From NCBI GenBank assembly GCA_041653995.1, contig JBAZEK010000001.1:107474-171473 (forward strand): 64,000 bases of DNA, read 5' to 3'. The stretch is from Dehalococcoidia bacterium. Lineage in GTDB: Bacteria; Chloroflexota; Dehalococcoidia; GIF9; UBA5629. A program made the translations under genes and the position numbers. Below are positions 48,192 through 64,000 of this stretch, piece by piece (the stretch's first letter is position 1; each line of letters begins with the position of its first letter). The notes below the pieces were generated by a model. It ran no database searches, had not been told where the DNA came from, and worked only from the letters and a program-made list of their open reading frames with translations.

Positions 48192-48271
48192 CATCCATAT
48201 AAGGTTAAGGTAAACTTTGCGATTGGTTAAATTCTTTAACCAAATATCATATTTAGGGGTGATTTGCTACC

Positions 48272-49081
48272 ATGAACATGATCGTCTGCTGTAAACAGGT
48301 ACTCGATCCCGAAGCAGCTCCAGCCACCTTCAAACTGGATGCTGCCAACAACAGGATGGTCCAGCCGCCTGAGGTCAAGCCGGTTGTAAATCCGTATGAC
48401 GAGCAGGCTGTCGAGGCTGCCCTGCGCATCAAGGACAAGGACAAGGCTGCCCACAAGGTGACTATTATTAGCCTTGGCAACAACCTTGTGCGCGATGTGG
48501 TCAAGAAACCGCTCTCGATGGGCGCCGACGAGCTGATACTGCTTGAAGACGCTGCTTTCGAAGGCGGAGACAGTTTCTCAGTTGCTTCGGCGCTGGCAGC
48601 CGCCGTTAAAAAGGTCGGAGCTTTCGACCTGATCTTCTGCGGCAGGCAGGAATCAGAATGGGACGACGGACAGGTCGGCTCAGGATTGGCCGAGCTGCTG
48701 GGTATACCCAGTGTTACGGTAGCCAAGAAAGTTGAGGTTCTCGACGGTGGCAAAGTAAAGGTGGAACGCGTGGTTGCAGACGGCTTTCAGGTGCTGGAAG
48801 TTCAGGGCCCCGCGCTCATCACCGTCAGCAACGAGCTTGGCGAAGCGCGCTATGCCACGCTGAAGGGCATTATGGCCGCCAGTAAAAAACAGCCCGTTGT
48901 ATGGAAGCCTGCGGATATCGGCGTGGATGCCGGCAAGGTCGGCGCCGCAGCCAGGAAATCCAAGATCGTCAAGCTCTTCCAGCCGGTAAAAGAAGGCAAA
49001 TGCGATATCGTCAGCGCCGATTCACCGGCGGAGGCAGCAGCCTTGCTCGCCAATAAATTGCGCGAAGCCAAGGTTATTTAA
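48272..49081 (+). CDS. etfB: electron transfer flavoprotein subunit beta
   Basis: The N-terminus is MNMIVCCKQVLDPE, with LIFCGRQESEWDDGQVG also present. Confidence 0.9.
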   Translation: MNMIVCCKQVLDPEAAPATFKLDAANNRMVQPPEVKPVVNPYDEQAVEAALRIKDKDKAAHKVTIISLGNNLVRDVVKKPLSMGADELILLEDAAFEGGDSFSVASALAAAVKKVGAFDLIFCGRQESEWDDGQVGSGLAELLGIPSVTVAKKVEVLDGGKVKVERVVADGFQVLEVQGPALITVSNELGEARYATLKGIMAASKKQPVVWKPADIGVDAGKVGAAARKSKIVKLFQPVKEGKCDIVSADSPAEAAALLANKLREAKVI

Positions 49082-49114
49082 CGCTACCGACAGGATAATT
49101 AATAGGAGGATACA

Positions 49115-50107
49115 ATGGCTGATAATAAAGGAATACTGGTAGTCGGTGAAGCCGCTGAAGGCAAACTTCTCCCGATCACCGCTGAAATACTGGGCGCCGC
49201 TAGGAAACTTGCCGATGAGCTCAAAGAGCCCCTGAACTGCATTATTATAGGCGCAGGCCTGGGCGACACAGGGAAAGCGGCCGTGGCCGCCGGCGCGGAC
49301 AAGGTCTTACTGGCCGACGATGCGCAGCTTAAAGATTACGAGAACTCTACATATATGCAGGTCATGGAGAAAGCCGTGGCCGAGCTGGCTCCCAAGGTCA
49401 TTATTATGGGACAGACCGCCAACGGTCGGGACCTGGCCCCCAGGCTGGCCTTCAAACTGGGTGTGAGCGCGGTTATGGACTGTCTGGAGTTGGCAATGGA
49501 CGGCGGTAAGCTGCAATGCACTCGCCCGGTATACGGCGGCAATGCCAAGGCCATCTTCACTTCAGATGCTCTTCCGCAGATAGCCACCCTCAGGGTCAAG
49601 GCTGGAACCCCGCTGGCCCCCGACGCAGGCCGCGCCGGTGAGGTAGCCGCCTTCGCAGTGGCGCTGGACGCTTCCAAAATAAAGGCCAAGGTTCTTGAGA
49701 CCATCAAAGAGGAAGTTGCGGGCGTCAAGATCGAGGACGCTGCTTCGGTTATCGGTGGTGGACGTGGCATGGGCGGGCCCGAGCCATTCACCAAAGAGCT
49801 GGCGGAGCTGGCCAAGATACTCAAAGGCGCTGTAGGCGCATCCAGGCCCCCCTGCGACAACAAATGGGTGCCTGATTCCATTCAGATAGGGCTGACGGGC
49901 AAGATCATTGCCCCCGAGCTTTACATCGCGGTCGGCATCTCCGGTTCGAGCCAGCATATGTCCGGTTGCTCAGGCGCCAAGTGCATAGTGGCCATCAACA
50001 AGGACCCCGAGGCCAACATCTTTAAAGAGGCGCGCTTCGGCGTGGTGGGCGACTGGAAGGTTGTGCTTCCGGCCTTCACAGCCAAAGTCAAAGAACTGGT
50101 ATCGTAA
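49115..50107 (+). CDS. etfA: electron transfer flavoprotein subunit alpha
   Basis: AGGAGGA lies upstream. The FAD-binding C-terminus is PELYIAVGISGSSQHMSG. Confidence 0.9.
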   Translation: MADNKGILVVGEAAEGKLLPITAEILGAARKLADELKEPLNCIIIGAGLGDTGKAAVAAGADKVLLADDAQLKDYENSTYMQVMEKAVAELAPKVIIMGQTANGRDLAPRLAFKLGVSAVMDCLELAMDGGKLQCTRPVYGGNAKAIFTSDALPQIATLRVKAGTPLAPDAGRAGEVAAFAVALDASKIKAKVLETIKEEVAGVKIEDAASVIGGGRGMGGPEPFTKELAELAKILKGAVGASRPPCDNKWVPDSIQIGLTGKIIAPELYIAVGISGSSQHMSGCSGAKCIVAINKDPEANIFKEARFGVVGDWKVVLPAFTAKVKELVS

Positions 50108-50130
50108 CAGATTACGGTATAGTAAAAGGA

Positions 50131-50168
50131 ATACCCCGCCGGATTTCCGGCGGGGTATTTTATTTTTT
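50131..50168. terminator. rho-independent terminator between convergent etfA and the EF-G paralog
   Basis: A perfect 12-bp stem ATACCCCGCCGG / CCGGCGGGGTAT encloses an ATTT loop. It is followed by TTTATTTTTT on the plus strand. Confidence 0.8.
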
Positions 50169-50261
50169 ATTCGTAGGGGCGTACCTTCAGGTGCGCCCGA
50201 GTTAATATGCCTGTTGATATCCGATTACTATTCGGGCGGGGTTAAAAACCAACCACAACAT

Positions 50262-52331
50262 TCATTCTTTCTGCGCCGCGCTCTTATATTGGGCGATGAT
50301 CTTCTGGGCGACAAGGGCGGGCACGGGCTCGTAGTGGCTGAACTCGATGGTAAAAGTGCCCCTGCCCTGCGTCATGGAGCGCAGGTCGATGGCATACCTG
50401 AGTATCTCTGACTGCGGGGCTTGCGCCTGGATAACATTAAGGCCGTGGCTGGGATTCATTCCGCTGACCCGGGCGCGCTTGGTGTTCAGATCGCCGATGA
50501 TGTCGCCGGTAAAGGAATCGGGCACCGTAACGGTGATGTTCATAATCGGCTCGAGCAGTACCGGCGAACCGTCCAGCATTCCCTTCTTGAAAGCCTGGGC
50601 AGAGGCGATTTTAAAGGCCATTTCCGATGAATCAACCGGATGGAAGCTGCCGTCGTAGAGCGTGACCTTCATGTCCACGGCCGGGAACCCGGCCAGCACG
50701 CCCTCGATTCGCGCCTCCTTGATGCCTTTTTCGACGGCCGGGATGTAGTTCCTGGGCACTGAGCCGCCCACTACCTTTGAGTCGAATTCGAAACCACCAC
50801 TCGGTGGCAACGGTTCCATCCTTATAAGGACATGCCCGTACTGGCCGTGACCGCCGGTCTGCTTCTTATGTTTAAATTCAGCTTCCACGGGCGTTGTAAT
50901 CGTTTCCTTGTAGGGTACCCTGGGTACATCGAGCAGTACTTCCACGGCGAATTTGCGCTGCAGCCTGCTGGCCGCGATCTCCAGATGTGTGTCTCCCATG
51001 CCGCCCAGCGTGAGTTCACCGGTATCGGCTTCCCGCTGTGACCTCAGGCTGGGGTCCTCCTCGCAGATCCTGGCCAGGCCGGAGCTCATCTTGTCCAGGT
51101 CCGCCTTGGATTTGGGATGCACGGCCTTGCTCAGTATTGGCGACGGGAAGTTGATTGGAGCTAATTTGAGGGGATGTTCTTTGACGCCGAGGGTGTCGCT
51201 CGATGCGGTATTGGTTAGCTTGACCACCAGGCCGATGTCACCTGTACCCACCTGGGTGACAGTTTCCTGGGTCTTGCCATGCGGCATCGAAACCTGTCCG
51301 ATACGCTCGACCGCGCCCTTGTTCACGTTCCATACTTGCGAGTTGCTGGAGAGCACTCCGGAGTAGACACGGAAAAAGCTGACCTTTCCCACGTGCGGGT
51401 CGGTGGTCGTTTTGAATACCAGGGCGGTCAGTGTTGATTCGGCAGCCGGCTTGACCTCCTCCTCTTTGCCTGCAGCGTTGGTTGCTTTGAAAGCGCCTGC
51501 TGCGATGGGAGACGGCAGGTATTCTACGATAGCATCCAGCAGGCCGATGACGCCGTTGTTGGCCAGGCTGGAGCCTGCCAGAACCGGGATGACCGTGCCC
51601 TGTAAAGTAGATGCTTTAAGACATTTATATATCTCATCGGTGGTGATCTCACCGCCGTCGAGATAGCGCGTCATAATCTCGTCGTCGGCCTCCACTACGG
51701 CCTCGATCAGCTTCTCCCTGGCGGCATCCACCTCGGCCGCCATGGCCGCGGGCAACTCCATTTCTTTGGCCGGCGCTCCCGCATAGGCCTTTTTAGCTAT
51801 GATATCTATGACGCCTTTAAAGGCCTTTTGCGAACCGATAGGGATCTGGATGGGCAGGCACCTGGCGCTCAGTTTATTCTGGATCTGCTCCAGCGTGCCC
51901 GCGAAATTGGCGTTCTCACGGTCCATTTTGTTTATAAAAATAAGGCGCGGTATCCTGGCTTCCAGGGCATAGTTCCATACCTGCTCGGTGCCCACCTCCA
52001 CGCCCGAGGCCGCACAGACCACCACTACGGCAGACTCGCATACGCGCAGGGCCGATTTAACCTCGCCCACGAAATCGGGATAACCGGGTGTGTCGATTAT
52101 GTTGATCTTGTTGTTCTTCCAGGGGGCAGGCAGTATGCTGAGGTTGAGGCTGATCTGGTGTTTGATCTCATCAGGGTCGTAATCTGAAGCGGTAGTGCCG
52201 TCGGCAACATTGCCCATGCGGCTGATGGCGCCTGCATCGAAGAGGATGGCCTCGGCCAGGGAGGTTTTTCCCGAGCCGGAGTGAGAGAGGAGGGCTACAT
52301 TGCGGATTTTATCAGGGCCAGGCTGCTGCAT
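50262..52331 (-). CDS. elongation factor G paralog (EF-G2-like)
   Basis: It is a 689-aa translational GTPase with G1 SHSGSGKTS (not AHIDAGKTT) and G3 DTPGYPDF. It stands alone, not in a str operon. Confidence 0.9.
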   Translation of the reverse strand: MQQPGPDKIRNVALLSHSGSGKTSLAEAILFDAGAISRMGNVADGTTASDYDPDEIKHQISLNLSILPAPWKNNKINIIDTPGYPDFVGEVKSALRVCESAVVVVCAASGVEVGTEQVWNYALEARIPRLIFINKMDRENANFAGTLEQIQNKLSARCLPIQIPIGSQKAFKGVIDIIAKKAYAGAPAKEMELPAAMAAEVDAAREKLIEAVVEADDEIMTRYLDGGEITTDEIYKCLKASTLQGTVIPVLAGSSLANNGVIGLLDAIVEYLPSPIAAGAFKATNAAGKEEEVKPAAESTLTALVFKTTTDPHVGKVSFFRVYSGVLSSNSQVWNVNKGAVERIGQVSMPHGKTQETVTQVGTGDIGLVVKLTNTASSDTLGVKEHPLKLAPINFPSPILSKAVHPKSKADLDKMSSGLARICEEDPSLRSQREADTGELTLGGMGDTHLEIAASRLQRKFAVEVLLDVPRVPYKETITTPVEAEFKHKKQTGGHGQYGHVLIRMEPLPPSGGFEFDSKVVGGSVPRNYIPAVEKGIKEARIEGVLAGFPAVDMKVTLYDGSFHPVDSSEMAFKIASAQAFKKGMLDGSPVLLEPIMNITVTVPDSFTGDIIGDLNTKRARVSGMNPSHGLNVIQAQAPQSEILRYAIDLRSMTQGRGTFTIEFSHYEPVPALVAQKIIAQYKSAAQKE

Positions 52332-52763
52332 ATAAATACCTCGATTCTCGTAAAATTTTGAAAGGAATACCAGGGGGCATTTTAGCAGCGTATGAGTGTA
52401 AACGTCAAGGTTGTTGACGTGTGATCAAAGCTAACGCGGTTCACATCCTGACAGCAGGATTAAAACGGTCGAAATCAATTGGACTGTATGACATGCTATA
52501 GAGTAGCAGGAATCACCGACGTCGTTTGCATCGAACGTTGCACGCCGCATTAATGGGTAGGAGGTATCGGCAATGAGGAAGTTGTTATAAATCGCACTGG
52601 TCCAGTTGATCTTGATCGTGATGGCAGTGCCCGGATGCCGGCTACTAATACAGCGCTTCCTCCGCCTCCGCCGCTCCAGCCATACATAACCGGAGCTTCC
52701 GCTCGCGGACAATATTTGAAAACTGGTCATCAAACCGGAAAGCTTTTTGCTCACAGACAGTCA

Positions 52764-52772
52764 TGCTATAAT
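52764..52772 (+). promoter_or_regulatory. extended -10 element (TGCTATAAT) upstream of the TetR gene
   Basis: TGCTATAAT lies 43 nt upstream of the ATG at 52816. Confidence 0.4.
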
Positions 52773-52815
52773 GAATATTATTCAATAACATCGCTTGTTT
52801 TGAGATGATTTAGTT

Positions 52816-53460
52816 ATGAATCTAAGAGCAAGAACCCTTGAAGCCAAACAGCAAAAAAGGCAGAAGATTCTTGAGGCAGCCAAGGAGCTTTTCTTCAATA
52901 ATGGCTACTACGGCACTTCTATCGAGATGATCACTGAGAAAGCTGGTGTAAGTACGGGGACTTTTTACCTGTACTATACGAACAAAGTAGAGATCTACAA
53001 GGCCCTGCAAAATGAAGGCCTTGATATTCTTGTCGATAAGATTACGAAGGTTATATCGTGGCCTGGCATGAGTTCCCTTGCGAAACTCTCAGAGATCGCA
53101 CGGACTTATTTTAATTACTATAATGAGCATAGGGAATATTTTGACATAATATCCATATTGAGTGCCATACCGGATGAGCTCAAGGAAACGCAAACAGAAA
53201 TCGGCAGGGTCATAGACAATAAGGCATATAATTTATTAAAGGTGATTGAAGGTGTGTTGAAAGAAGGTATAGAAAATGGTGAATTCATCTCGATGGATAC
53301 GTGGAAAGCAACAAATGCGTTCTGGGGCTTGATGGATGGCCTTATTCTACTCGACGAACGGAATAATACACGGAACGTAATTGGGATTGGTCTGGAAGAT
53401 TTGATTAAACAGGCACTCGAAATGGCATTCTATGGTATAGTGAAGCAGAGACCTGTATGA
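52816..53460 (+). CDS. TetR/AcrR family transcriptional regulator
   Basis: The N-terminal HTH is ILEAAKELFFNNGYYGTSIEMITEKAGVSTGTFYLYYTNK. The length is 214 aa. Confidence 0.9.
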   Translation: MNLRARTLEAKQQKRQKILEAAKELFFNNGYYGTSIEMITEKAGVSTGTFYLYYTNKVEIYKALQNEGLDILVDKITKVISWPGMSSLAKLSEIARTYFNYYNEHREYFDIISILSAIPDELKETQTEIGRVIDNKAYNLLKVIEGVLKEGIENGEFISMDTWKATNAFWGLMDGLILLDERNNTRNVIGIGLEDLIKQALEMAFYGIVKQRPV

Positions 53461-53770
53461 AAGTTTAAAAATAGCATAATTTGGTCGTGATTTCCTGAAA
53501 TGTGTTAATAAGCAGGATTTCATGTGACAACTGAGAGTTCGCCGGTAACAAAATTCTTGTCAGATTGCAATATATCAAACATTTTTTATTGGCCAGTCTA
53601 TTACTATCAAAGTAAGGTCCTATACTTCTCCCATTAAGACAGATCTGCTGCAGACTGTTTGAGTTTTCGTTTTTCTTCCCCCAGAACTATAACCGTCTCA
53701 CCCCATCCGCATCTCCATCCCACGTACCCCCTCTAACGCAAAAAGTTTGCTCTACGGAGTTTAAAAATAT

Positions 53771-53799
53771 TTGACAATTGAACCAGATTCAGTTATAAA
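53771..53799 (+). promoter_or_regulatory. near-consensus sigma70-type promoter of the GRE operon
   Basis: TTGACA (53771-53776), an exactly 17-nt spacer, then TATAAA (53794-53799). It lies about 97 nt upstream of the GRE1 ATG. Confidence 0.55.
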
Positions 53800-53811
53800 T
53801 ATAGCCGAGGT

Positions 53812-53825
53812 TAGAACCGGTTATA
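53812..53825. promoter_or_regulatory. 14-bp imperfect palindrome, candidate repressor operator
   Basis: TAGAACC|GGTTATA is self-complementary at 12 of 14 positions and lies just downstream of the predicted start site. ATAACCGG recurs at 52686-52693 upstream of the tetR promoter. Confidence 0.3.
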
Positions 53826-53895
53826 TTTTGCAGGAAGATGATTAAGAGAGTGCCCAAGACCGCGATTCAACAATAATTAAAAGGGGATAGCAGGA

Positions 53896-56475
53896 ATGAA
53901 TATAGCAGATCAGGCCAGGGAGAGGATAAAGAGAATTCATAAGTGCTATCTGAAGGATATTTCGGTTATCTCCATCCAGCGGGCTAGGTACTATACTGAA
54001 AAATGGCGTGAGACTGAAAACAGCACGCTTTCGCCGGCTGTGAGAGTGGCACTTGCCGTGAAACATGTCTATGAAAACATGGACATCTGTATCCATAGGG
54101 ATGACAGGATTGCCGGCACCTGGACCGAGAATTACCTGGGCATACCGATCGATATTGAACGTGGTCTGTTTAATAAGGTAATGGAGATCGAACTCGACCG
54201 GCCTTCCATGATCCGATACCTTGTAAAGACAAACCTCAGTTTCTTTATCTACATGTTCAGGAAATATGGGATTCTGAATCTCTATCGAAACCTGAAACAT
54301 ATCCAGGCAGTCGGTGCCGCCATGCCCAGCATCGGCACCAAGCCCGTGGATAAGCGCAATATCAATCCCTATTCGATCCGGCCTAAAGACCGGAAGATAC
54401 TGCAGAAAGAATTATTGCCTTACTGGGAGGGAAAGACCATTGTCGATGTGTTCAGGAAAGAGCTCGAATCTTCAAATATATATAAAGGAGATATGCTCAG
54501 TTTTGCTATAGCCCTTCCTTCAACCACTTCACGAAACGACACCATTATCTCGCCGGGTGCTGGAATCGGTAACTGGCAGGGACATGTGATTCTCGACCAT
54601 GAGAAATACCTGCGACACGGTCTTATCGGTATGCGCTCTGCAGTTCAGGGATTAATTAAACAGAACGGAAACCTCAGCCCCGATGAACGCGCATTCCTTG
54701 ATTCCATTGATATCGTTCTTGAGGGAGTGATGATCTATGCTCGCAGGTTAACGGAAAAACTGAAGCAGGAACTGGAGCGTGAGAATAATCCGGAACAAAA
54801 GCAGATACTCTCAGAAATGCTGGAGATCTGTGAGCACGTACCTCTGAACCCAGCACGCACCTTCCGCGAGGCAACGCAGTCGTACTGGACCGTGAAGACA
54901 GCAGTCGCGCTTGCCATTCCATTCAATGTTCACACGCCCGGCAGGCTTGACCAAATCCTTTTTCCATATTACCGCGATGATATAGCGGAAGGTCGTATCA
55001 CCAGGGACGAAGCCTGTTGGCTGTTACAGGAGCTGTTCCTGAAGGTTATGAGCCACAATATGCGGCCATATTCCAATTTTACCGCCTACTTCGCCAGCCG
55101 TTACGAAGGCTCGGAACCGGTGACGCTCGGCGGGCAAACCGTGAACGGGGAGGATTTATGCAACGAGCTAACCCATGTAATACTGGATGCCGCAGAACAG
55201 TCCAAGGTTGTGCTGAATTTTGCGGTTCGCTTTAACAGGAATACCCCTGACGAGTTATACATGAGGTTAGCCGATATGTACTATAACGGCTACTCAAGTG
55301 TTTCTATGCTGAATGATGATGTCTGTCTCAAGGCCATGGAGAAACGGGGATTTCCTCAAGAGGACGCCAGAGAGTATGCCATGGGAAGTTGTGTTGACCT
55401 GTGCGTGCCCGGCAAGATGGGCAGTATGTCGTATTCCGCATTGCTGCTCTGTCGTACCTTGGATATTACGTTGAGAAATGGGGATGCCCGTACTCTTGTG
55501 GGCACGGTGGCAAACGTCGGGCTCAAAACCGGCGAACCGGAGGGGTTTTCTTCTTTCGGTGAGTTCGTTGATGCATATGTCAGGCAGGCTGCTTTCCAGA
55601 TTGAGAAGATTGCAGAGGCGTCCTGCATCAGAGACCGGCTATATGCCAAATATCTTCCTGCCCCGCATATCTCGGCATTCATCCAGGGATGTCTGGAAAA
55701 GAAGAAGGATGTCACCCGTGGTGGCGGCATCTATGATCTTGAGGGTATCCTCTACATGAGTAGCATCGCCAATGTGGTTGACTCGCTCTATGTGATCAAG
55801 AAACTCATCTTTGAACGGCGGGAGTTTACTTTCAAAGAACTGCTGAGTGCCATCGATAACAACTTTACCGGCTATGAGCATATCCATCGCATGATCCAGG
55901 GAGTGGAGGGTAAATGGGGCAATGGCAATCCCGAATCGGACGACTTTGCCAGGGACCTTACCACCCGTTTGTTCACTGAGACATTCAAATACCGCACCTA
56001 CAAAGGGGGATTCATAGCTCCATTTGTCAACAGTATGACCTCACATACCTATGACGGGCGCATCTGTATAGCAACTGCCGATGGCAGGAAAGGCGGCAAA
56101 CCGTTTGCCTCGAGCTGCAATCCTTACAATGTGGACAAGCACGGGCCGACAGGAGTGCTTCGCTCGGTTGCCACAATGGATTTCACCAACGTGCTCGGGG
56201 TTGCGGTTAATCTCCGAATGCACCCCTCAGCGATCGGTAAAGATACGGAAAGCAGAAAGAAGTGGATATCCTTGGTCAAGACATACTTCGGTATGGGCGG
56301 CGAACAGCTTCAGCCCACCGTGGTCTCTACAGAGGTGCTGAGGGCGGCCCAGAAGAATCCCGAGAACTACATGGATGTGGTTGTAAAGGTCGGTGGCTAC
56401 AGTGCTTGCTTCGTGGATCTCGGGTATGAGATCCAGGAGGAGATTATTTCTAGATCAGAGCACAAAATGGTGTAG
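53896..56475 (+). CDS. glycyl-radical enzyme, PFL2/glycerol-dehydratase-like superfamily, divergent (GRE1)
   Basis: 859 aa. The N-terminal block is ISIQRARYYTEKWRETE. The Cys loop is GSCVDLCVPGK (Cys499). The C-terminal glycyl motif is VVKVGGYSACFVDLGYEIQEEIISR (Gly834). Confidence 0.9.
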   Translation: MNIADQARERIKRIHKCYLKDISVISIQRARYYTEKWRETENSTLSPAVRVALAVKHVYENMDICIHRDDRIAGTWTENYLGIPIDIERGLFNKVMEIELDRPSMIRYLVKTNLSFFIYMFRKYGILNLYRNLKHIQAVGAAMPSIGTKPVDKRNINPYSIRPKDRKILQKELLPYWEGKTIVDVFRKELESSNIYKGDMLSFAIALPSTTSRNDTIISPGAGIGNWQGHVILDHEKYLRHGLIGMRSAVQGLIKQNGNLSPDERAFLDSIDIVLEGVMIYARRLTEKLKQELERENNPEQKQILSEMLEICEHVPLNPARTFREATQSYWTVKTAVALAIPFNVHTPGRLDQILFPYYRDDIAEGRITRDEACWLLQELFLKVMSHNMRPYSNFTAYFASRYEGSEPVTLGGQTVNGEDLCNELTHVILDAAEQSKVVLNFAVRFNRNTPDELYMRLADMYYNGYSSVSMLNDDVCLKAMEKRGFPQEDAREYAMGSCVDLCVPGKMGSMSYSALLLCRTLDITLRNGDARTLVGTVANVGLKTGEPEGFSSFGEFVDAYVRQAAFQIEKIAEASCIRDRLYAKYLPAPHISAFIQGCLEKKKDVTRGGGIYDLEGILYMSSIANVVDSLYVIKKLIFERREFTFKELLSAIDNNFTGYEHIHRMIQGVEGKWGNGNPESDDFARDLTTRLFTETFKYRTYKGGFIAPFVNSMTSHTYDGRICIATADGRKGGKPFASSCNPYNVDKHGPTGVLRSVATMDFTNVLGVAVNLRMHPSAIGKDTESRKKWISLVKTYFGMGGEQLQPTVVSTEVLRAAQKNPENYMDVVVKVGGYSACFVDLGYEIQEEIISRSEHKMV

Positions 56476-56480
56476 AGGAT

Positions 56481-56510
56481 ATGGCTTCAGGGATTGTATT
56501 CGACATTTAG
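56481..56510 (+). pseudogene. decayed 5' stub of a GRE-activase gene
   Basis: The ATG lies 5 nt after the GRE1 stop and encodes MASGIVFDI*. The functional activase starts MKGLVFDIQ, 8 nt after the GRE2 stop. A weaker resemblance may extend to about 56546. Confidence 0.45.
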
Positions 56511-56596
56511 GTGGTGGAGCTTAGTAGTATTGGTGGTATTGTCAGGTAATTCGGGGTAATAATGGCAGGGATGATAATAGTCATAGGAGACATTAG

Positions 56597-59173
56597 ATGT
56601 ATATGAAGGATAAGGCGTCGGAACGCATCAAACGAATTCGCCGCAGGTACCTTGAGGATATGCCCGGCATCTCCATTGAACGTGCGCGATATTATACGGA
56701 AAAGTGGCGTGAAACAGAGAAGAGCAACTTTTCGCCGGGAGTGCGGGTAGCCCTCTCCATGAAAAATGTATATGAGAAAATGCGTATAAATCTGGATCCT
56801 GACGACAGGATCTGCGGTACGTGGACAGAGTATTATCTGGGGATTCCTATTGATATCGAACGGGGTCTTTTCAATGAGACATTAAAGATTGAGCTGGGCA
56901 GACTCTCGATGGCGGGGCACCTGGCTAGATCAAACCTGAGATTTATCGGAAGCATGATAAGGCGCTACGGTTTATTGACCCTTTACAGGAATATGAAACA
57001 TACGGCGGATGTGGGCGTGGCGATGCCGAGTATCGGATTAAGTCCAATGTACAGCCGCAAAATAAATCCCTACAGGATAACATCAGGTGATAAAAAAGAA
57101 CTCCACAACAAGCTTTTCCCTTATTGGAAGGGGAAAACCATTGCCGATCTTCTTAAAACAGCTCTGGAGAGTTCAAACGTTTATACCGGAGATATCCTGA
57201 GCTTTTCGGCAGCGCTTCCATCCACTACGTCCAGGAATGACACGATCATCTCAACCGGGTCTGCAATAGGCACCTGGCAGGGACATTTGATTCTGGACCA
57301 TGAGACGCCGCTGAAGAAGGGACTGCTGGGGATGCATGAAGAAATAAGAGAACGACTGAATAGCAAAGACTTAACATCAGATCAACGTGAATTTCTGAAA
57401 TCAATTGACATTGCTTTAGAAGGGGTCATTATTTACGCCCGAAGGCTAGTGGAAACGATATTGCGAGAGCTTGAACAGAACAAGGATCCCCAAAGAGGCA
57501 GATTATTGCAGCGGCAACTTGAAATATGTAAGAGAGTTCCACTGTACCCGCCGCAGAGCTTTAGTGAGGCCGTCCAATCGTATTGGACGATAAAAACCGC
57601 GGTCGAACTTTCGATGCCATTCAACGTGCACGCACCTGGGAGGTTGGACCAATTGTTTTACCCATATTACGTCAAGGATATGGAAGAGGGTAAGATCAGC
57701 AGGGAAGAAGCACGTGAATTACTTGAAGAGCTCTTTCTCAAAGTCATGAGCCATAATATGAGGCCGTATTCCAATTTCATCAGCTATTTCACCCAGCGAT
57801 ACGAAGGGTCTGAGCCTGTAACAATGGGAGGACTTACCGCCAACGCGAAGGATGCCACTAACGATCTAACGTATGTGATGCTGGAAGCCGCAGCAGATTC
57901 AAAGGCAGCGCTGAATTTCGTTGTCCGACTGCATAAGAATTCCCCCCCGGAGCTTTTTAGGAAGGTTGCCGAGCTTCACCATGAGGGTATCTCCAGCATA
58001 TCAGTCATGAATGATGAAGTGAGTATCAAAGCCCTGGAAAAGCGCGGTTTTTCGCGCGAGGATGCGCTTGGCTATGCTATTACCGGTTGTGTTGACATGG
58101 TGGCCCCGGGCAAAACCGGTGGAGAGGCATTCTGCGCATTATTATTAAGCCGGATTCTCGACATGACTCTTCGCAATGGCGATTCGCAGACCGTGATAGG
58201 CATGGTTGAAGGCATCGGACTTAAGACAGGAAATCCTGATACTTTTATAACCTTCGATCAACTGGTCGATGCATTTGTAGAACAAACAGCCTTTCAGATT
58301 AAAAAGCTCGTTGAGGCAACATATATACGAGACAGTCTGTATGCTGAACACCTTCCTGCGCCTTATATCTCGGCTTTCATGGGTGGATGTTTGGACCATG
58401 GCAGGGATATAACGGCCGGCGGTGCAGTATATGACCTTGAAGGCATTCTATTTATGAACAGCATAGCAAACGTCGTTGACTCGCTCTTCGTGATGAAAAA
58501 ACTTATCTTTGAACAAAAGCGGTTTACGTTTAAAGATCTTTTAAATGCCGTCGATAAGAACTTTGTGGGATATGAGAATATCTATCAATGGATAAACGAA
58601 GTGGACGGCAAATGGGGCAACGGGAATCCGGAGTCGGACTCTATAGCACACGATGTGACAAAGCGTATTTTCGAAGAGACTTTCCACTACCATACGTATA
58701 AAGGAGGTTTTTATGCCCCCTTTGTCAACAGTATGACTACGCATACATATGACGGTCGCATTTCAACTGCCACTCCTGATGGCAGGAAGGCCGCAAAGCC
58801 ATATGCAGCCAGCTGTAATCCTTACAACGTGGAAAAATGCGGTATCACCGGTGTGCTGCGATCGGTGGCTGCTATCGATTTTTCCAATGTCATGGGTTGT
58901 GCAGTAAATATCAGATTGCACCCATCCTCCATCGGCCAAACAGAGGAGGCAAGGAAGAAATGGATCGATCTATTGAAAACGTATTTCCGATTGGGGGGCG
59001 AACAGCTTCAGCCGACAGTGGTTTCAACTGAGGTGCTTAAAGCGGCGCAGAAGGATAGGGAGAATTACAGGAATGTCATTGTGAAGGTCGGCGGTTACAG
59101 TGCATATTTTGTAGACCTTGGATATGAAATACAGAATGAAATCATCGAGAGGACTGAACACAGGGGAGTTTAA
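56597..59173 (+). CDS. glycyl-radical enzyme, paralog of GRE1 (GRE2)
   Basis: 858 aa, colinear with GRE1 at roughly 60% identity by eye. The Cys loop is TGCVDMVAPGK (Cys498). The glycyl motif is IVKVGGYSAYFVDLGYEIQNEIIER (Gly833). Confidence 0.9.
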   Translation: MYMKDKASERIKRIRRRYLEDMPGISIERARYYTEKWRETEKSNFSPGVRVALSMKNVYEKMRINLDPDDRICGTWTEYYLGIPIDIERGLFNETLKIELGRLSMAGHLARSNLRFIGSMIRRYGLLTLYRNMKHTADVGVAMPSIGLSPMYSRKINPYRITSGDKKELHNKLFPYWKGKTIADLLKTALESSNVYTGDILSFSAALPSTTSRNDTIISTGSAIGTWQGHLILDHETPLKKGLLGMHEEIRERLNSKDLTSDQREFLKSIDIALEGVIIYARRLVETILRELEQNKDPQRGRLLQRQLEICKRVPLYPPQSFSEAVQSYWTIKTAVELSMPFNVHAPGRLDQLFYPYYVKDMEEGKISREEARELLEELFLKVMSHNMRPYSNFISYFTQRYEGSEPVTMGGLTANAKDATNDLTYVMLEAAADSKAALNFVVRLHKNSPPELFRKVAELHHEGISSISVMNDEVSIKALEKRGFSREDALGYAITGCVDMVAPGKTGGEAFCALLLSRILDMTLRNGDSQTVIGMVEGIGLKTGNPDTFITFDQLVDAFVEQTAFQIKKLVEATYIRDSLYAEHLPAPYISAFMGGCLDHGRDITAGGAVYDLEGILFMNSIANVVDSLFVMKKLIFEQKRFTFKDLLNAVDKNFVGYENIYQWINEVDGKWGNGNPESDSIAHDVTKRIFEETFHYHTYKGGFYAPFVNSMTTHTYDGRISTATPDGRKAAKPYAASCNPYNVEKCGITGVLRSVAAIDFSNVMGCAVNIRLHPSSIGQTEEARKKWIDLLKTYFRLGGEQLQPTVVSTEVLKAAQKDRENYRNVIVKVGGYSAYFVDLGYEIQNEIIERTEHRGV

Positions 59174-59181
59174 GATACTTC

Positions 59182-60090
59182 ATGAAGGGCTTGGTTTTCG
59201 ATATACAATACTACTCCATTTATGATGGCCCCGGTATACGCAGCACAATTTTTCTGAAGGGATGTCCGCTCCGTTGTTTATGGTGCCACAACCCCGAGTC
59301 ACAGTCTGGTATGGCGGAGATGTCATATTTTGCAGAACGGTGTGCACGTTGCGGCGCCTGCATCAAAGCCTGCCCGCAGGCAGCGCTTAGCATGACTGGC
59401 AAAGGAGTCCTGCGGGATCGTGAAAAATGCTCTGTTTGTGGTAAATGTGCCGCTGTCTGCAGGAACAACGTCATGGAAAAAATCGGACGTGAGTGCGACT
59501 CGGAAGAAATAGCGCTTCTAGTCTCCAGGGATAGAGATTTCTACCAGGCTTCGGGGGGTGGAGTGACGGTGTCAGGGGGTGAACCGACAGTTCAGACATC
59601 GTTTCTCTTCGATCTTCTAATAAAGTTGAAAGCCTTGGGTATCCATACCGCTGTAGAAACCAGTGGATGTTTTAATACGGATTCTCTTGAGAAACTGCAA
59701 ACGCTTTCTGACCTTATTCTCTTCGATCTCAAACACTCTGATCCGGTAAAACATCGTGAGTATATCGGCACTGGTAATGAAAGAATACTAGAGAATTTCA
59801 GTCAGTTCGTTGAGAGAATCGGAAGCAAACGGATCATACCGCGAATTCCGGTAATCCCGGGTTTCAATGCTGATGCCAAATCAATGCATGGAATTTTATC
59901 GGTTCTCAAAGAATCCTCCTATAAGGGACCAGTACATCTCATGCCGTATAACAGAATGGCTAAAACAAAATACGAAAAGATCAACAGAGGCTGCGACTAT
60001 CGCGACATGGGCGAGCTAACCGACGCGATGAAGACGGAAATAGCCGGGATAGTTGAATCATATGGTTACGAACCATTGTTCAATCAATAG
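59182..60090 (+). CDS. glycyl-radical enzyme activating enzyme (radical SAM)
   Basis: The N-terminus is GLVFDIQYYSIYDGPGIRS. The radical SAM motif is C28-PLR-C32-LW-C35. Two ferredoxin-like motifs are present (CARCGACIKACP and CSVCGKCAAVC). Confidence 0.9.
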   Translation: MKGLVFDIQYYSIYDGPGIRSTIFLKGCPLRCLWCHNPESQSGMAEMSYFAERCARCGACIKACPQAALSMTGKGVLRDREKCSVCGKCAAVCRNNVMEKIGRECDSEEIALLVSRDRDFYQASGGGVTVSGGEPTVQTSFLFDLLIKLKALGIHTAVETSGCFNTDSLEKLQTLSDLILFDLKHSDPVKHREYIGTGNERILENFSQFVERIGSKRIIPRIPVIPGFNADAKSMHGILSVLKESSYKGPVHLMPYNRMAKTKYEKINRGCDYRDMGELTDAMKTEIAGIVESYGYEPLFNQ

Positions 60091-60150
60091 GATAATTCAG
60101 CTACAAATCTGTAACACAATAGGTAATTAAGAAATGTGTGAGGAATCCAT

Positions 60151-61521
60151 ATGAAAGACATTCAGCAGGTCTCAAATGTGAACACGGTCGAAGGCAGCGA
60201 ACGCCTCTCTCTGGGTGTTAAGTTGGGTTATGGCATAGGCAACTTTGCCTTTAACTTAGCGTTCCAGGTTGTCGCCCTTTTCCTGATCTTCTTTTATACT
60301 GATGTGTTTATGATCAGCGCGGCCTTTGCAGGGGCCATTTTTTTTGTATCTAAAGCCTGGGATATTGTCTTCGATCCGATGGTAGGATACTTTTGCGATC
60401 ATACAAAGTCACGATGGGGGAAGAAACGCCCATATATTTTGTTTGGATCGATATTATTAGGTATCTCGATGATATTGCTTTTCGCCTCCCCGAACCTTTC
60501 AGAAACAGACCGAATAATCTATGGATTTGTTACATTTATAGCCTTCTGTTCGGCAATCACTGTGGCGAATGTTCCCTACGGCTCCCTTACGGCCGATCTC
60601 ACGCTTGATGCCCACGAGAGGTCGTCTCTTTCGGGCTATTCCATGGCCTTCGCGCTTGCAGGAACGCTTGCTGCTGCGGGCGCAACGAAGCTACTGGTGG
60701 GATCTTTTGCTGACGAGACTACAGGATTTCGAGCTATGGGGATAATATATGCAGTTATCGTTGTCGTCTTGCTGATGATTACATTTGCGAGCGTCAAAGA
60801 GAGGGGTTTGTCTTCGGGAGAGGTAAAGCAGCCGCTTAAGAAGGATTTGGCGCTGGTAGTAAAAAATGGCCCCTTTCTCATACTAACCGGAGCGACTACT
60901 CTGATGATGGTTGGGATAAGTATTGTGGGAGTGGTGGTAAACTATTATTTTAAATATAACCTCCAGATGGAATGGATGATCCCCATCGCCTTCCTCCTAC
61001 TCTTCGTCACTGCGGGCATTTTCCTGCCTCTTTTCGTGTTTATCTCAAAAAAGAAGAGCAAGAAATTTGCCTTTAACACAGGCCTGATAATTTTTTCCAT
61101 CGCACTGGTACTTCTGTATTTTTTCAGTGATAAAGGCATTGAGTATATAGTTCCGATCTTATTCCTGGCTGGTGTGGGGATGGCAACCGTTTACCTGAGC
61201 CCGTGGTCGATGATTCCCGATACGGTTGAATTCTCCCAATGGAAGACGGGATTGCGCAGAGAAGGGATCCTTTATGGTTGTTTCTGGGTTAGCTTTAAAA
61301 TAGGAGCCGCGCTTGCGGGTTTTATTGCCGGGCAATGCCTCACTCTGGCGAACTATATTCCAAACATTGCACAGAGTGAAGGTACACTATTTATGATCAA
61401 GCTTTTAATGACTGCCGTGCCACTCATTTTCATTCTGGCTACTATTACGCTTATTTCTTTCTATCCCATCGATGCTGAAATGCATCGTAAAATGCTTGAT
61501 GAGATCAAGTCAGGAGCCTGA
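60151..61521 (+). CDS. glycoside-pentoside-hexuronide (GPH) family cation symporter (MFS)
   Basis: GAGGAA lies upstream. The GPH-type motif is WDIVFDPMVGYFCDHTKSRWGKKRPY. It has about 12 hydrophobic segments. Confidence 0.9.
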   Translation: MKDIQQVSNVNTVEGSERLSLGVKLGYGIGNFAFNLAFQVVALFLIFFYTDVFMISAAFAGAIFFVSKAWDIVFDPMVGYFCDHTKSRWGKKRPYILFGSILLGISMILLFASPNLSETDRIIYGFVTFIAFCSAITVANVPYGSLTADLTLDAHERSSLSGYSMAFALAGTLAAAGATKLLVGSFADETTGFRAMGIIYAVIVVVLLMITFASVKERGLSSGEVKQPLKKDLALVVKNGPFLILTGATTLMMVGISIVGVVVNYYFKYNLQMEWMIPIAFLLLFVTAGIFLPLFVFISKKKSKKFAFNTGLIIFSIALVLLYFFSDKGIEYIVPILFLAGVGMATVYLSPWSMIPDTVEFSQWKTGLRREGILYGCFWVSFKIGAALAGFIAGQCLTLANYIPNIAQSEGTLFMIKLLMTAVPLIFILATITLISFYPIDAEMHRKMLDEIKSGA

Positions 61522-61571
61522 TTGTAAATGATGGGGACCTGTAATGGCGTTTGTGGGCAGCTCGTTGCAAG

Positions 61572-61635
61572 AGGAGACATCAGAACGCATTAGTAAGGGT
61601 TCTACGCGAGTACCTTCAGGATATGCACTGCGTTT
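61572..61635 (+). pseudogene. decayed 5' stub of a third GRE gene (GRE2-like), start codon deleted and frameshifted
   Basis: It shares nucleotide blocks with the GRE2 5' region: AGGAGACAT (9/9), GAACGCAT (8/8), GTACCTT (7/7) and AGGATATGC (9/9). Translations in two frames give SERISK and LREYLQDM, against GRE2 SERIKRIRRRYLEDM. Confidence 0.55.
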
Positions 61636-61731
61636 TAAACAATTTTTATAACTGAAAAAGTTCATAATGATGAATCTATTCTGAGGTGAATTTAAAGGCC
61701 ATCGTAAAAGAAAAAAGGTGTAAATAACATT

Positions 61732-61833
61732 ATGTATGAAGATGTTGATATGCCAATAATTAGCGAACGTTATCTCGAAGATTTAAGGTTATTTCAATTG
61801 TTCGTAGAAACACCTGTAAGGAGTAACTCATGA
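61732..61833 (+). CDS. possible 33-aa upstream small ORF (MYEDVDMPIISERYLEDLRLFQLFVETPVRSNS)
   Basis: AAGGTG lies about 11 nt upstream of the ATG. The TGA stop overlaps the ATG of the next gene (ATGA). There is no homology evidence. Confidence 0.2.
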   Translation: MYEDVDMPIISERYLEDLRLFQLFVETPVRSNS

Positions 61834-62999
61834 ACAGCAACGAACGAACCGCAATCGCACTCAATCTGGGAATACCTGATCGTGTGCCTATCTACTCCGA
61901 GACCGTGATACAGAACCAGATTTACGAAATCCTGGGCGAGAAAAACAAGGCCGTTCCGCTACGCCTGATCCAGGAAGGCTTGACAGGGACGTTATTCAAA
62001 CTGGCTGCCCCACTGATAAATCGTATTGGCTGGTCCAATCGACAGGTAGAGAAATTTATGTCAAAAAAAATTGAAGCCGACATCGTCCTGGGATACGATT
62101 GTTCCCTGGCGGGGTACTCGGCGATTTTCAATCTAAAGGGTAACCGGCAGGCGACCGACATTTGGGGTAAGCTATACGATTTGGTAGCCGACCCGGATGG
62201 AAATGTGGACACGCCTATGTACCGTCAGGGATTGCTGACCACGCCGGAGCTATGGGACGCCTGGCCTCACCCCACTCCCGATCGATTGTATAAGATGCTG
62301 TATCCTATCTTCGCCGACCTGCAGAAACGCTATGGCAAGCGGATTTATCTGCTGGGCAGCCTGTCGTGTGCTGGGTTGTGGGAGGCGTCCACCGGGGGCA
62401 TGGGCTTGACAGCCTTCTCAGTTGCGCTACACCGCAATCCCGACTTTGTGCGGCGCATGGCAAAGTATTATGAGATGATCTGGCTGGCTACCATCCACGC
62501 TACTGCCGATGCTGGAATGCCGGCTTTAGTTTACGAGGACGATTTGGCCTACAAGAGCGGACCGATGGTTTCGCCACGTGTGCTGGATGAATTTTTCGGC
62601 CCCGGCCTGCGGAGAATCACCAAAGAGGCTCACAAACGCGGCTTGAAGATCATCATCCATTGCTGCGGCAACGTGAACCAGTTGCTGGATCTTTTCGTGG
62701 ATTGGGGCTTCGATGGTGCACAAGCATTGGAGCCAACTGCCGGGGTAGACCTGGCGGAGGTGAAAAAACGAGTAGGGAAGCGGATGTGCATTTTTGGTAA
62801 CCTTGACATCTCCCATGTGATGAGCCAGGGTACACGGGAGGAAGTGGAGGCAGCGGTAAAGTCGGCGATACAAGCTGCTGCTCAGGATGGTGGGTTCATC
62901 ATGGGTAAGACCAACTCGCACTATGCGGTGAAAGTCGAAAATACCCGCTGGATGATCGAATATACCCACCGCTACGGGGCGTATCCTATCGCACATTAG
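61830..62999 (+). CDS. URO-D family methyltransferase (MtaA/MT-type, corrinoid-dependent system component)
   Basis: AAGGAG lies upstream. The Zn-type motif is IIHCCGNV. It is immediately followed by a corrinoid protein gene. Confidence 0.85.
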   Translation: MNSNERTAIALNLGIPDRVPIYSETVIQNQIYEILGEKNKAVPLRLIQEGLTGTLFKLAAPLINRIGWSNRQVEKFMSKKIEADIVLGYDCSLAGYSAIFNLKGNRQATDIWGKLYDLVADPDGNVDTPMYRQGLLTTPELWDAWPHPTPDRLYKMLYPIFADLQKRYGKRIYLLGSLSCAGLWEASTGGMGLTAFSVALHRNPDFVRRMAKYYEMIWLATIHATADAGMPALVYEDDLAYKSGPMVSPRVLDEFFGPGLRRITKEAHKRGLKIIIHCCGNVNQLLDLFVDWGFDGAQALEPTAGVDLAEVKKRVGKRMCIFGNLDISHVMSQGTREEVEAAVKSAIQAAAQDGGFIMGKTNSHYAVKVENTRWMIEYTHRYGAYPIAH

Positions 63000-63021
63000 A
63001 TTGAAATCGATGAGGTGAGCA

Positions 63022-63660
63022 ATGAACGAACATGAAGCTATACAAGGGGTGTTGGCAACTGTTGTCAGCCTGGATATCGACGGAGTGACAGGGCAGGTAA
63101 GCGCTGCTCTAAAGGCGGGCGCCGATCCGCGCAATGTGCTGAACGAGGGTCTGAGCGCCGGCATGAGGATCGTGGGCGAGCGATTCCAGTCAGGTGAATA
63201 TTTCCTGACCGAGCTGTTGCTGGCGGGAGAGGTGATGAAAGCCGGCTTGGTCCCGCTGGAGCCATTGCTGGTCAATACCGATATTCAGGGCAAAGGCACC
63301 GTCGTGCTGGCAACCGTCAAGGGAGATATCCATGACCTCGGCAAGAACCTGGTGGGTATGATGCTGAGCGCCGCTGGTTTTGAGGTGATCGACCTGGGGT
63401 CCGATGTTGCCTCTCAGCGGATTGTTGAAGCAGTACGCAAACACAAGGCAAAAATCGTGGCGCTCTCTATGCTGCTAACACCCATGGTTATCTCCTTACG
63501 GTCCGCGGTGGAGGAGATAACCATGGCCGGGCTGCGGGATCAAGTAAAAATCATCATTGGCGGTGCCTGCACCACGCCGGTCCTGGCAAAAGAGCTGGGC
63601 TGTGATGCCCATGGAGAAGATGCGATGGCGGCCGTCTATCTCTGCGAGAAATTTATTTAA
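63022..63660 (+). CDS. corrinoid (cobalamin-binding) protein
   Basis: It has a B12-binding cap plus a Rossmann domain, with DxHxxG (GDIHDLGKN), SxL (LSMLLT) and GG (IIGGA). Confidence 0.9.
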   Translation: MNEHEAIQGVLATVVSLDIDGVTGQVSAALKAGADPRNVLNEGLSAGMRIVGERFQSGEYFLTELLLAGEVMKAGLVPLEPLLVNTDIQGKGTVVLATVKGDIHDLGKNLVGMMLSAAGFEVIDLGSDVASQRIVEAVRKHKAKIVALSMLLTPMVISLRSAVEEITMAGLRDQVKIIIGGACTTPVLAKELGCDAHGEDAMAAVYLCEKFI

Positions 63661-63713
63661 TATTTCAGTAGCTGGGGTTATTTCTGACTTAAATTAACAA
63701 GATTAGATAGGTA

Positions 63714-64000
63714 ATGAATAAAACTGATAATAAGGGTAAAATGACATCCATCGAGCGGGTAAACTCCCTTTTGAACAGGCAAAAATTCGACCGCGTGCCT
63801 TTTTTCCCCTTTTCGCTGGGCTTCAGCGCTAAGAACGTCGGGTACCCCATAGGTTCAGTGTACAGCGAACCTGTTAAAAGCTTCGATGCCCAACTATGGA
63901 CCCAGCAAATGTATGGACACGACCAGTACCCCTTTTTCGGCAGTGCTGTCTATGGGACGAGAGAGTTTGGTGGGGAAGTAGAGTTCCCGATCGGCGATTC
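63714..64000 (+). CDS. URO-D family methyltransferase, second copy (3' end outside window)
   Basis: It is not on the track because it runs off the window. From the ATG at 63714 it reads MNKTDNKGKMTSIERVNSLLNRQKFDRVPFFPFSLGFSAKNVGYPI..., which matches the MtaA-like N-terminal pattern (ER....L.....DRVP). Confidence 0.7.
   Translation, partial: MNKTDNKGKMTSIERVNSLLNRQKFDRVPFFPFSLGFSAKNVGYPIGSVYSEPVKSFDAQLWTQQMYGHDQYPFFGSAVYGTREFGGEVEFPIGD

Follow-up and report, generated by a model that had tools for sequence, protein, structure and literature searches.

We analyzed a 64,000-nucleotide stretch of DNA from a Dehalococcoidia bacterium (assembly GCA_041653995.1, contig JBAZEK010000001.1, positions 107,474 to 171,473; hereafter the window), in which two neighboring paralogous genes, GRE1 and GRE2, encode glycyl radical enzymes (GREs) with a Cys-Val-Asp (CVD) cysteine loop and a Lys-Val-Gly-Gly-Tyr (KVGGY) glycyl loop. 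Judging by analogy with characterized enzymes, we hold it slightly better than an even bet (a probability of about 0.55) that both are active GREs of an uncharacterized, carbohydrate-associated subfamily and most likely work like the GRE 1,2-eliminases. Radical dehydration of imported carbohydrates would be their most likely function.

Loop register, fold and family membership

Both proteins matched the Pfam profiles PF02901 (E-values 1e-135 and 9e-137) and PF01228 (1.6e-21 and 3.9e-19), and both reading frames are intact; by these matches, GRE1 and GRE2 are members of the PFL-like GRE superfamily. Their identity is 62.6% across 859 aligned columns, which makes the divergence of about 40% given in an earlier reading of the letters (the sequence-only reading) a fair figure. 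That reading had placed the thiyl-loop codons at 55390-55398 in GRE1 and 58088-58096 in GRE2, and the codons of the radical Gly at 56395-56397 and 59093-59095; translation bore out all four. In GRE1, C499-V500-D501 is encoded by TGT GTT GAC, and the Asp sits where a CXE motif has Glu.

The register of the loops was assessed by pairwise HMMER alignments to solved structures. The CVD of GRE1 and GRE2 aligned without gaps on the CVE of glycerol dehydratase (C433/E435), propanediol dehydratase, HypD and CutC, and it also aligned on the CTE of HpsG and of IseG, which is an isethionate sulfite-lyase like IslA. The catalytic Cys (C499 in GRE1, C498 in GRE2) was thus in register with C433 of glycerol dehydratase and with the Cys of propanediol dehydratase, HypD and CutC. 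GRE1 'amgsCVDlcvpgk' was paired with glycerol dehydratase 'giigCVEpqkpgk', and 'vvvKVGGYSAcf' with 'livRVAGYSAqf', in which the radical Gly is G763. These alignments ruled out misregistered loops, indicating that the same Cys and Gly stand at the active site as in the structurally characterized GREs.

According to a 2026 review, all characterized GRE eliminases and isomerases keep CXE, with the Glu hydrogen-bonded to the substrate (PMC13450708). GRE1 and GRE2 have CVD instead and retain the carboxylate. The sequence-only reading had given G-C-V-E-P as the eliminase motif; C-x-E is indeed general, but the flanking residues are not, as HypD has GCVET and HpsG and IseG have GCTE. No NCBIfam equivalog or subfamily cut-off was reached by either protein: on TIGR01774, the PFL2/glycerol dehydratase subfamily, where 678.2 bits are required, they scored 441.5 and 455.5, and they fell far under the cut-offs of the HypD, HpsG, HpfG and CutC equivalogs. 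The absence of CXE together with the missed curated cut-offs places GRE1 and GRE2 outside every characterized family.

The current GRE fingerprint is RVxG[FWY]x6-8[FL]x4Qx2[IV]x2R (PMC13450708), and both GREs fit every position except the first, where they have K for R. The sequence-only reading had counted two deviations in the glycyl loop. The replacement of the conserved Arg, by Lys, stands; the Gly in place of a small residue before the radical Gly does not fall outside the fingerprint, since RVxG allows any residue there and Gly is therefore rare yet within it.

AlphaFold2, supplied with 40 sequences of the clade, gave a model with a mean predicted local distance difference test score (pLDDT) of 86 and a predicted template-modeling score (pTM) of 0.91. 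In the PDB, the folds nearest to the model were 5I2G and 9RCO (propanediol dehydratase) and 1R8W (glycerol dehydratase), at TMq of 0.83-0.84 and TMt, which is normalized by target length, of 0.89-0.91. Many GREs matched the model with template-modeling (TM) scores of 0.8-0.9, and the X-succinate synthases came last among the PFL2-like enzymes (0.75-0.77).

Distribution and conservation of the motifs

We collected the 120 clusters nearest to GRE1 in a set of 5.8 billion proteins (57-100% identity). CVD and KVGGY were both present in all 120, whose hosts are Dehalococcoidia, Desulfobacterota, Abyssubacteria and Asgard archaea. HMMER, run exhaustively on 1.84 billion cluster representatives, returned 6,515 relatives. 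Bit scores were about 845 in a wider group (two representatives, 44-47% identical) and then fell sharply to about 420.

Residue frequencies outside the clade were counted in the 139 outgroup members among the 150 best of these 6,515 representatives, a sample of close relatives and not the whole superfamily. The catalytic Cys was present in 139 of 139. The second residue after it was Glu in 110 and Asp in one, and the residue preceding it was Gly in 126 and Ser in one. In the glycyl loop, the Arg position held R in 123 and K in 14 (about 10%), indicating that R-to-K is a tolerated variant that does not exclude a protein from the superfamily; the residue preceding the radical Gly was A in 89, S in 27, T in nine and G in five. 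KVGGY occurred in two further outgroup clusters, and a third had the K and G but lacked CxE. One of the sister representatives, 47% identical, combines GCVE with KVGGY. Because KVGGY is common to this CVE-bearing sister clade, the glycyl-loop variant is a minority state older than the CVD clade. By this comparison of sequences, the Asp-for-Glu change is the diagnostic one that defines the CVD clade, and the glycyl-loop deviation is not specific to it. All three substitutions are chemically conservative.

Among 52 distinct clade genes, the Asp codon was GAC in 31 and GAT in 21 and never a Glu codon, and the Lys codon was AAG in 33 and AAA in 19 and never an Arg codon, although Glu and Arg are each a single mutation away. 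All four Gly codons were used at both Gly positions. Such synonymous turnover without replacement indicates purifying selection. Decay into pseudogenes was ruled out by the intact open reading frames (ORFs), the kept catalytic residues and the selection at codon level. The suggestion of the sequence-only reading that the shared deviations mark a distinct subfamily under selection is therefore supported by the conservation of the motifs in all 120 homologs, the codons, the score gap and the missed cut-offs. The same reading had allowed that the combination might be typical of a clade already characterized; none with CVD or KVGGY was found in the top five alignments per PDB search, in the 2026 review (PMC13450708) or in the full-text literature.

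In P0146, P0162 and other neighboring GRE clusters, the radical-Gly position holds Ala or Thr (RVAAY, RVATW, RVSTW, RVATY), which is consistent with the aminoacyl radical enzymes of the 2026 review.

Active-site residues and orthogroups

GRE1 His230 aligned on the general-acid His166 of propanediol dehydratase, GH on GH; His166 presumably corresponds to His164 of glycerol dehydratase by numbering offset. Q228-G229-H230 was invariant in 40 clade members, the wider motif being W/Y-Q-G-H. The equivalents of the catalytic triad (Cys, acid and His) are thus invariant in the clade. The substrate contacts differ. Glycerol dehydratase D447 aligned with Y513 in GRE1 and F512 in GRE2, and H281/S282 with N344/V345, part of a conserved N-V-H motif; we take D447 and H281/S282 to be substrate contacts. 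At positions that contact the substrate in other GREs, the residues here are polar: N344, H346, Y403, E404 and S406.

With the propanediol and glycerol dehydratases as best fold matches and the general-acid His conserved, GRE1 and GRE2 might be small-diol dehydratases that act on 1,2-propanediol, glycerol or ethylene glycol and close a sugar pathway, e.g., by dehydrating a diol formed when lactaldehyde from an aldolase is reduced by an iron-dependent alcohol dehydrogenase (Fe-ADH). However, the identity to those enzymes is only 25-27%, the TIGR01774 and equivalog cut-offs were missed, and the substrate contacts are replaced.

By sequence, the closest solved relative is HpsG (351 bits), and GPH transporters, of which the window encodes one, include sulfoquinovose carriers; hence we also considered C-S lyases whose substrate would be a sulfonated sugar or other sulfonate imported by a YihO-like GPH transporter. 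Against them, of the two Arg and one Gln that anchor the sulfonate, R183 and Q187 of HpsG aligned with S219 and G225, and HpsG and IseG were gapped or unaligned at the His that the GREs here keep. The TauE sulfite exporter, moreover, was found beside none of the 37 CVD loci described below but beside four of 31 sister loci. We regard C-S cleavage as very unlikely.

The CVD clade comprises three groups by the sequence of the Cys loop. The GRE1 type (A/G-S-C-V-D-[LC]-C; 18 sequences) occurs in bacterial loci only, the GRE2 type (T-G-C-V-D-M; 94 sequences) in bacteria and Asgard archaea, and a third, small type has TGCVDLL. The GRE1 and GRE2 types occur together in nine of 37 non-redundant loci. 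Only eight positions (at least 85% conserved) discriminate between them: V231L, M481L, A497T, S498G, S510G, A573V, G611A and V711I. Five of the eight either adjoin one of the catalytic residues, His or Cys, or belong to segments that pair with active-site stretches of glycerol/propanediol dehydratase. Their nearness to the active site suggests that the two orthogroups have related but distinct substrates.

Gene neighborhoods across the clade

A contig scan with a single protein retrieved only two close Dehalococcoidia loci. We clustered the ORFs of 79 metagenome loci together with the earlier loci and compared 37 CVD-clade loci with 31 loci of the CVE/KVGGY sister clade. The activase gene was adjacent in 29 of the 37. 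At least one carbohydrate gene (GPH symporter, FGGY or PfkB kinase, or DERA, KDPG or DHDPS aldolase) was present in 26/37 CVD loci and in 0/31 sister loci (p=2e-10). The GPH symporter accounted for 16, the FGGY kinase for 13 and an aldolase of any type for 13 of the 37, against none in the sister loci for each; the same TetR cluster as in the window was found in nine of the 37 and in no sister locus. The sister loci carried other genes: SDR epimerases (17/31 versus 1/37), one or two epimerase/dehydratase genes per locus where present (L051-L091), the acetoacetate-decarboxylase family (11/31 versus 0/37) and acyl-CoA dehydrogenases (12/31 versus 2/37). The contrast in neighbors indicates that the Glu-to-Asp change coincides with a change of pathway. 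The sister clade possibly represents another uncharacterized GRE function, with a sulfonate or acyl-CoA-linked substrate.

Some loci combine uptake, radical enzyme, kinase and aldolase in compact operons. In Desulfobacterota metagenome-assembled genomes (MAGs), the gene orders are TetR, GPH, GRE, GRE, activating enzyme (AE), Fe-ADH, FGGY, DeoC (L003) and GRE, Fe-ADH, FGGY, DeoC, GPH, GPH, GRE, AE (L009). A Lokiarchaeota locus reads GPH, HAD, two CrtI-like flavoproteins, cupin, 2-hydroxyacid dehydrogenase, MBL hydrolase, KDPG aldolase, FGGY, GRE, AE. In a relative with 90% identity to GRE1, the order is GRE1, GRE2, AE, GPH, two Zn-ADH genes, 2-hydroxyacid dehydrogenase, KDPG aldolase and PfkB. 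The minimal conserved module consists of GPH, GRE and AE and lacks both aldolase and ADH (L011, L021, L029, L031, L042). On NCBIfam models, the DeoC of L009 exceeded the deoC equivalog for deoxyribose-phosphate aldolase (187.6 versus 117.3 bits) and the KDPG aldolase exceeded the eda cut-off; the FGGY kinases were nearest to xylulokinase (338-351 bits) but below its cut-off of 380, and the neighboring Fe-ADHs showed weak similarity to lactaldehyde reductase, also below cut-off.

The Fe-ADHs, weakly similar to lactaldehyde reductase, fit the dehydration of small diols. That reading is countered by the minimal module, which has neither aldolase nor ADH, and by the Pfam-annotated loci, whose gene lists show neither shell genes of a microcompartment nor a CoA-acylating aldehyde dehydrogenase; an operon with two paralogs and two transporters also fits imported substrates better. 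Together with the low identity and the replaced contacts, this makes small-diol dehydration unlikely.

The neighborhoods also bear on hydrocarbon activation by alkyl- or benzylsuccinate synthase-like enzymes. Single-Cys Asgard GREs in Hermodarchaeota MAGs have been called Ass/Bss on 29-33% identity (PMC8163825), and one clade member (P0046) comes from a Hermodarchaeota MAG. However, the X-succinate synthases were the most distant PFL2-like matches by score (183-184 bits) as well as by fold, and the acid two residues past the Cys and the His of the diol dehydratases fit eliminases. In 26/37 loci, the neighbors serve the uptake and cleavage of carbohydrates; a non-exhaustive look at the annotated loci showed no small subunits of a succinate synthase, nor were genes of beta-oxidation noted there. 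Hydrocarbon activation is, in our estimate, extremely improbable.

Proposed function and mechanism

Homology, loop register, conserved residues and gene association are direct observations; the chemistry and the class of substrate are drawn from analogy. Under the preferred reading of GRE1 and GRE2 as eliminases of imported carbohydrates, the adjacent activase would put the radical on Gly834 (Gly833 in GRE2), from which it would move on to Cys499 (Cys498). The substrate, a polyhydroxylated compound brought in by the GPH symporter, would then lose a hydrogen at one of its carbinol carbons to the Cys thiyl. Asp501 (Asp500), at the place of the CXE Glu, would hydrogen-bond to or deprotonate the carbinol hydroxyl, and the adjacent hydroxyl would depart with a proton from His230; alternatively, a ring C-O bond would be cleaved. 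The product radical would recover the hydrogen from the Cys, giving a deoxy-carbonyl sugar. In related genomes, this product would be phosphorylated by the FGGY or PfkB kinase and split by a class I aldolase of the DERA, KDPG or DHDPS type, and the Fe-ADH would handle the aldehyde. In operons with DERA, pentitol(-phosphate) may be turned into 2-deoxyribose(-phosphate), and in operons with KDPG or DHDPS aldolases, aldonate(-phosphate) may be turned into a 2-keto-3-deoxy acid; anhydro-alditols are further candidate substrates. The substrates of the two paralogs are probably related, for instance as stereoisomers. A polyol is more reduced than a sugar, and its dehydration leaves the surplus reducing power in the product, on the pattern of glycerol fermentation.

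We propose tentatively, at somewhat less than even odds, that the CVD clade forms a new functional class of GRE, a radical carbohydrate dehydratase in which Asp is the base and which converts imported polyols or sugar acids to deoxy-carbonyl sugars for cleavage of the DERA or KDPG type.

Ring-opening isomerization is a close alternative to radical 1,2-elimination. In its specific form, GRE1 and GRE2 would be isomerases of the YbiW/PflD type that open a cyclic ether, such as an anhydro-alditol (free or phosphorylated), and so form a deoxy-ketose for cleavage by an aldolase. The context of kinase, aldolase and ADH is alike, and YbiW and PflD likewise form two paralogs, one for each of two epimers, that feed an aldolase, with a polyol dehydrogenase following (PMC13450708). 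On the other hand, their match to GRE1 (236-270 bits) is weaker than those of HpsG, CutC and glycerol dehydratase (336-351 bits), both keep CXE, and the importer here is a GPH symporter and not a phosphorylating uptake system. We consider this form rather improbable; it overlaps mechanistically with the dehydration set out above.

Several points weigh against radical dehydration of imported carbohydrates. The loci are phylogenetically clustered in a small number of sediment lineages and cannot be counted as wholly independent of one another. Three types of aldolase occur across them, and a single common product is therefore not established; clade members about 60% identical may differ in substrate. 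Asp has one methylene fewer than Glu and might serve another role. The model had pLDDT <50 only at GRE1 residues 713-724 and 733-743, both of which are clade-invariant. In the window itself, no kinase or aldolase genes were found among twenty larger ORFs at 14.5-47 kb (the scan began at about 14.5 kb); these twenty are housekeeping genes for arginine synthesis, MutS, RecG, tRNA synthetases and a GH57 enzyme.

The two low-pLDDT segments (approximately 56032-56067 and 56092-56124) contain the invariant motifs S-M-T-S-H-T-Y-D-G-R and K-P-F-A-S-S-C-N-P-Y-N. The first segment aligned with the region around Y640 of glycerol dehydratase, which we take to line the active site.

The operon and its surroundings

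The operon in the window runs in the order TetR, GRE1, GRE2, activase and GPH symporter (Table 1). The activase gene starts 9 nucleotides past GRE2, and its family matches identify it as the cognate radical-SAM activator expected beside members of the GRE superfamily. The GPH symporter is the probable importer of the substrate. The N-terminal insertion of GRE1 was not present in HpsG, IseG or A. fulgidus PFL2 in HMMER alignments, and the AlphaFold model predicts it to be mostly helical (helices 93-98, 102-124 and 126-139). About 70 bp upstream of GRE1 lies a candidate promoter that overlaps a palindrome (53797-53828), possibly the TetR operator. A consensus promoter scan did not list this site, and promoter and terminator sites in the region were no commoner than chance. 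Rfam gave no match on 52-64 kb of the window.

Table 1. Features of the GRE operon, in window coordinates
Feature	Position	Strand	Details
TetR-family regulator, upstream of the GRE operon	52816-53460	+	Pfam TetR_N
Candidate promoter TTGACA-N17-TATAAA overlapping palindrome AAATATAGCCG-N10-CGGTTATATTT	53771-53828	+	inference only
GRE1, PFL-like glycyl radical enzyme	53896-56475	+	859 aa; Pfam PFL-like 1e-135, Gly_radical 1.6e-21
GRE1 N-terminal insertion, about aa 76-149	54121-54342	+	HMMER splits the match here into two stretches
GRE1 His230, equivalent of general-acid His166 of propanediol dehydratase	54583-54585	+	GH aligned on GH
GRE1 Cys loop S498-C499-V500-D501	55387-55398	+	translation; TGT GTT GAC = CVD
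GRE1 Gly loop K831-V-G-G834-Y	56386-56400	+	radical Gly834 codon 56395-56397
GRE2, paralog of GRE1	56597-59173	+	858 aa; Pfam domains
GRE2 Cys loop C498-V-D500	58088-58096	+	translation
GRE2 Gly loop K830-V-G-G833-Y	59084-59098	+	G833 codon 59093-59095
Radical-SAM activating enzyme (activase), ferredoxin-like insert	59182-60090	+	TIGR02494 318.5 bits, cut-off 174; Pfam Radical_SAM, Fer4
GPH-family (MFS_2) cation symporter	60151-61521	+	TIGR00792 343.5 bits, cut-off 231

Directly 3' of the operon, at 61830-63660 and continuing past 64000, two genes encode a 389-aa URO-D-like methyltransferase and a 212-aa corrinoid protein that binds B12; a related stretch lies at 47061-48191. Syntenic loci carry another URO-D-like gene just after these. 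The set resembles a three-component O-demethylase, and genes of this kind reappear next to GREs of the CVD clade as well as of the sister clade (L014-L016, L060, L065, L069, L088, L091). A link of the GREs to O-methylated substrates is conceivable.

The GRE island (52687-64000) is 95.8% identical in nucleotides to Dehalococcoidia MAG contigs (L001, L002, L010, L041), whereas the EF-G and ETF genes beside it (48186-52641) are only 87-91% identical. Locus L002 is a mosaic (83%, 78% and 97.6%). The GC content of the island is 0.44-0.49, versus 0.53-0.57 in the flanks, and in L013, whose GRE1 is 90% identical, the island has different neighbors. Taken together, these features suggest that the island was recently transferred or recombined. 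The GH57 enzyme mentioned above is encoded at 14560-16689 (alpha-amylase/4-alpha-glucanotransferase); in the syntenic MAG L010, an additional alpha-amylase gene has been inserted near the island, with the URO-D gene on one side and the ETF genes on the other.

Significance

The CVD clade departs from the CXE rule of the characterized eliminases and isomerases, and does so in a strictly conserved manner. It is common in sediment Asgard archaea, Dehalococcoidia and Desulfobacterota. Its neighborhoods indicate carbohydrate catabolism and not the hydrocarbon activation that has been inferred for Asgard GREs; settling its function would alter the reading of carbon cycling by the host organisms. C-V-D combined with W-Q-G-H provides a simple sequence marker of the clade, and the analysis yields a concrete shortlist of candidate substrates. 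No archaeal PFL-like GRE has an assigned function (PMC13450708, 2026 review). If radical dehydration is correct, it would give bacteria and Asgard archaea of anoxic sediments a redox-saving, oxygen-sensitive shunt into glycolysis, and it would be the first functional assignment of an archaeal PFL-like GRE, displacing the 'alkylsuccinate synthase' reading of Asgard GREs. The conserved CXD, the link to carbohydrates and the Asgard distribution should be of moderate interest to GRE specialists.

Comparison with known systems

The ten-stranded barrel of GRE1 and GRE2 is common to the B12-independent glycerol dehydratase (1R8W/1R9D) and the GRE 1,2-propanediol dehydratase (5I2G, 9RCO). These enzymes also share the register of the Cys and Gly loops, the general-acid His (H166, here H230) and an adjacent dedicated radical-SAM activase. 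Apart from the low identity and the replaced D447 and H281/S282, the proteins here differ in having CVD for CVE, KVGGY for RVAGY and an extra N-terminal insertion of roughly 50-75 residues. Their context is a sugar symporter, kinase and aldolase, whereas that of the two dehydratases is a 1,3-propanediol or microcompartment locus.

YbiW and PflD, which act in anhydroglycolysis, resemble GRE1 and GRE2 as paired paralogs linked to carbohydrate derivatives and a class I aldolase, with a carboxylate two residues past the Cys. They differ in keeping the Glu, in their lower scores and in belonging with other families of uptake system, kinase and aldolase. The sulfonate C-S lyases HpsG and IseG/IslA have the same overall architecture, and HpsG is the top solved relative by sequence; however, HpsG and IseG have CTE and, in the alignments, no counterpart of the WQGH His, and the sulfonate-binding Arg and Gln are absent in GRE1. 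The sister clade (MGCVE with KVGGY, 47-55% identical) has the same glycyl loop, length and N-terminal architecture, but it keeps the Glu and is accompanied by SDR epimerases, the acetoacetate-decarboxylase family, acyl-CoA dehydrogenases and TauE in place of carbohydrate genes.

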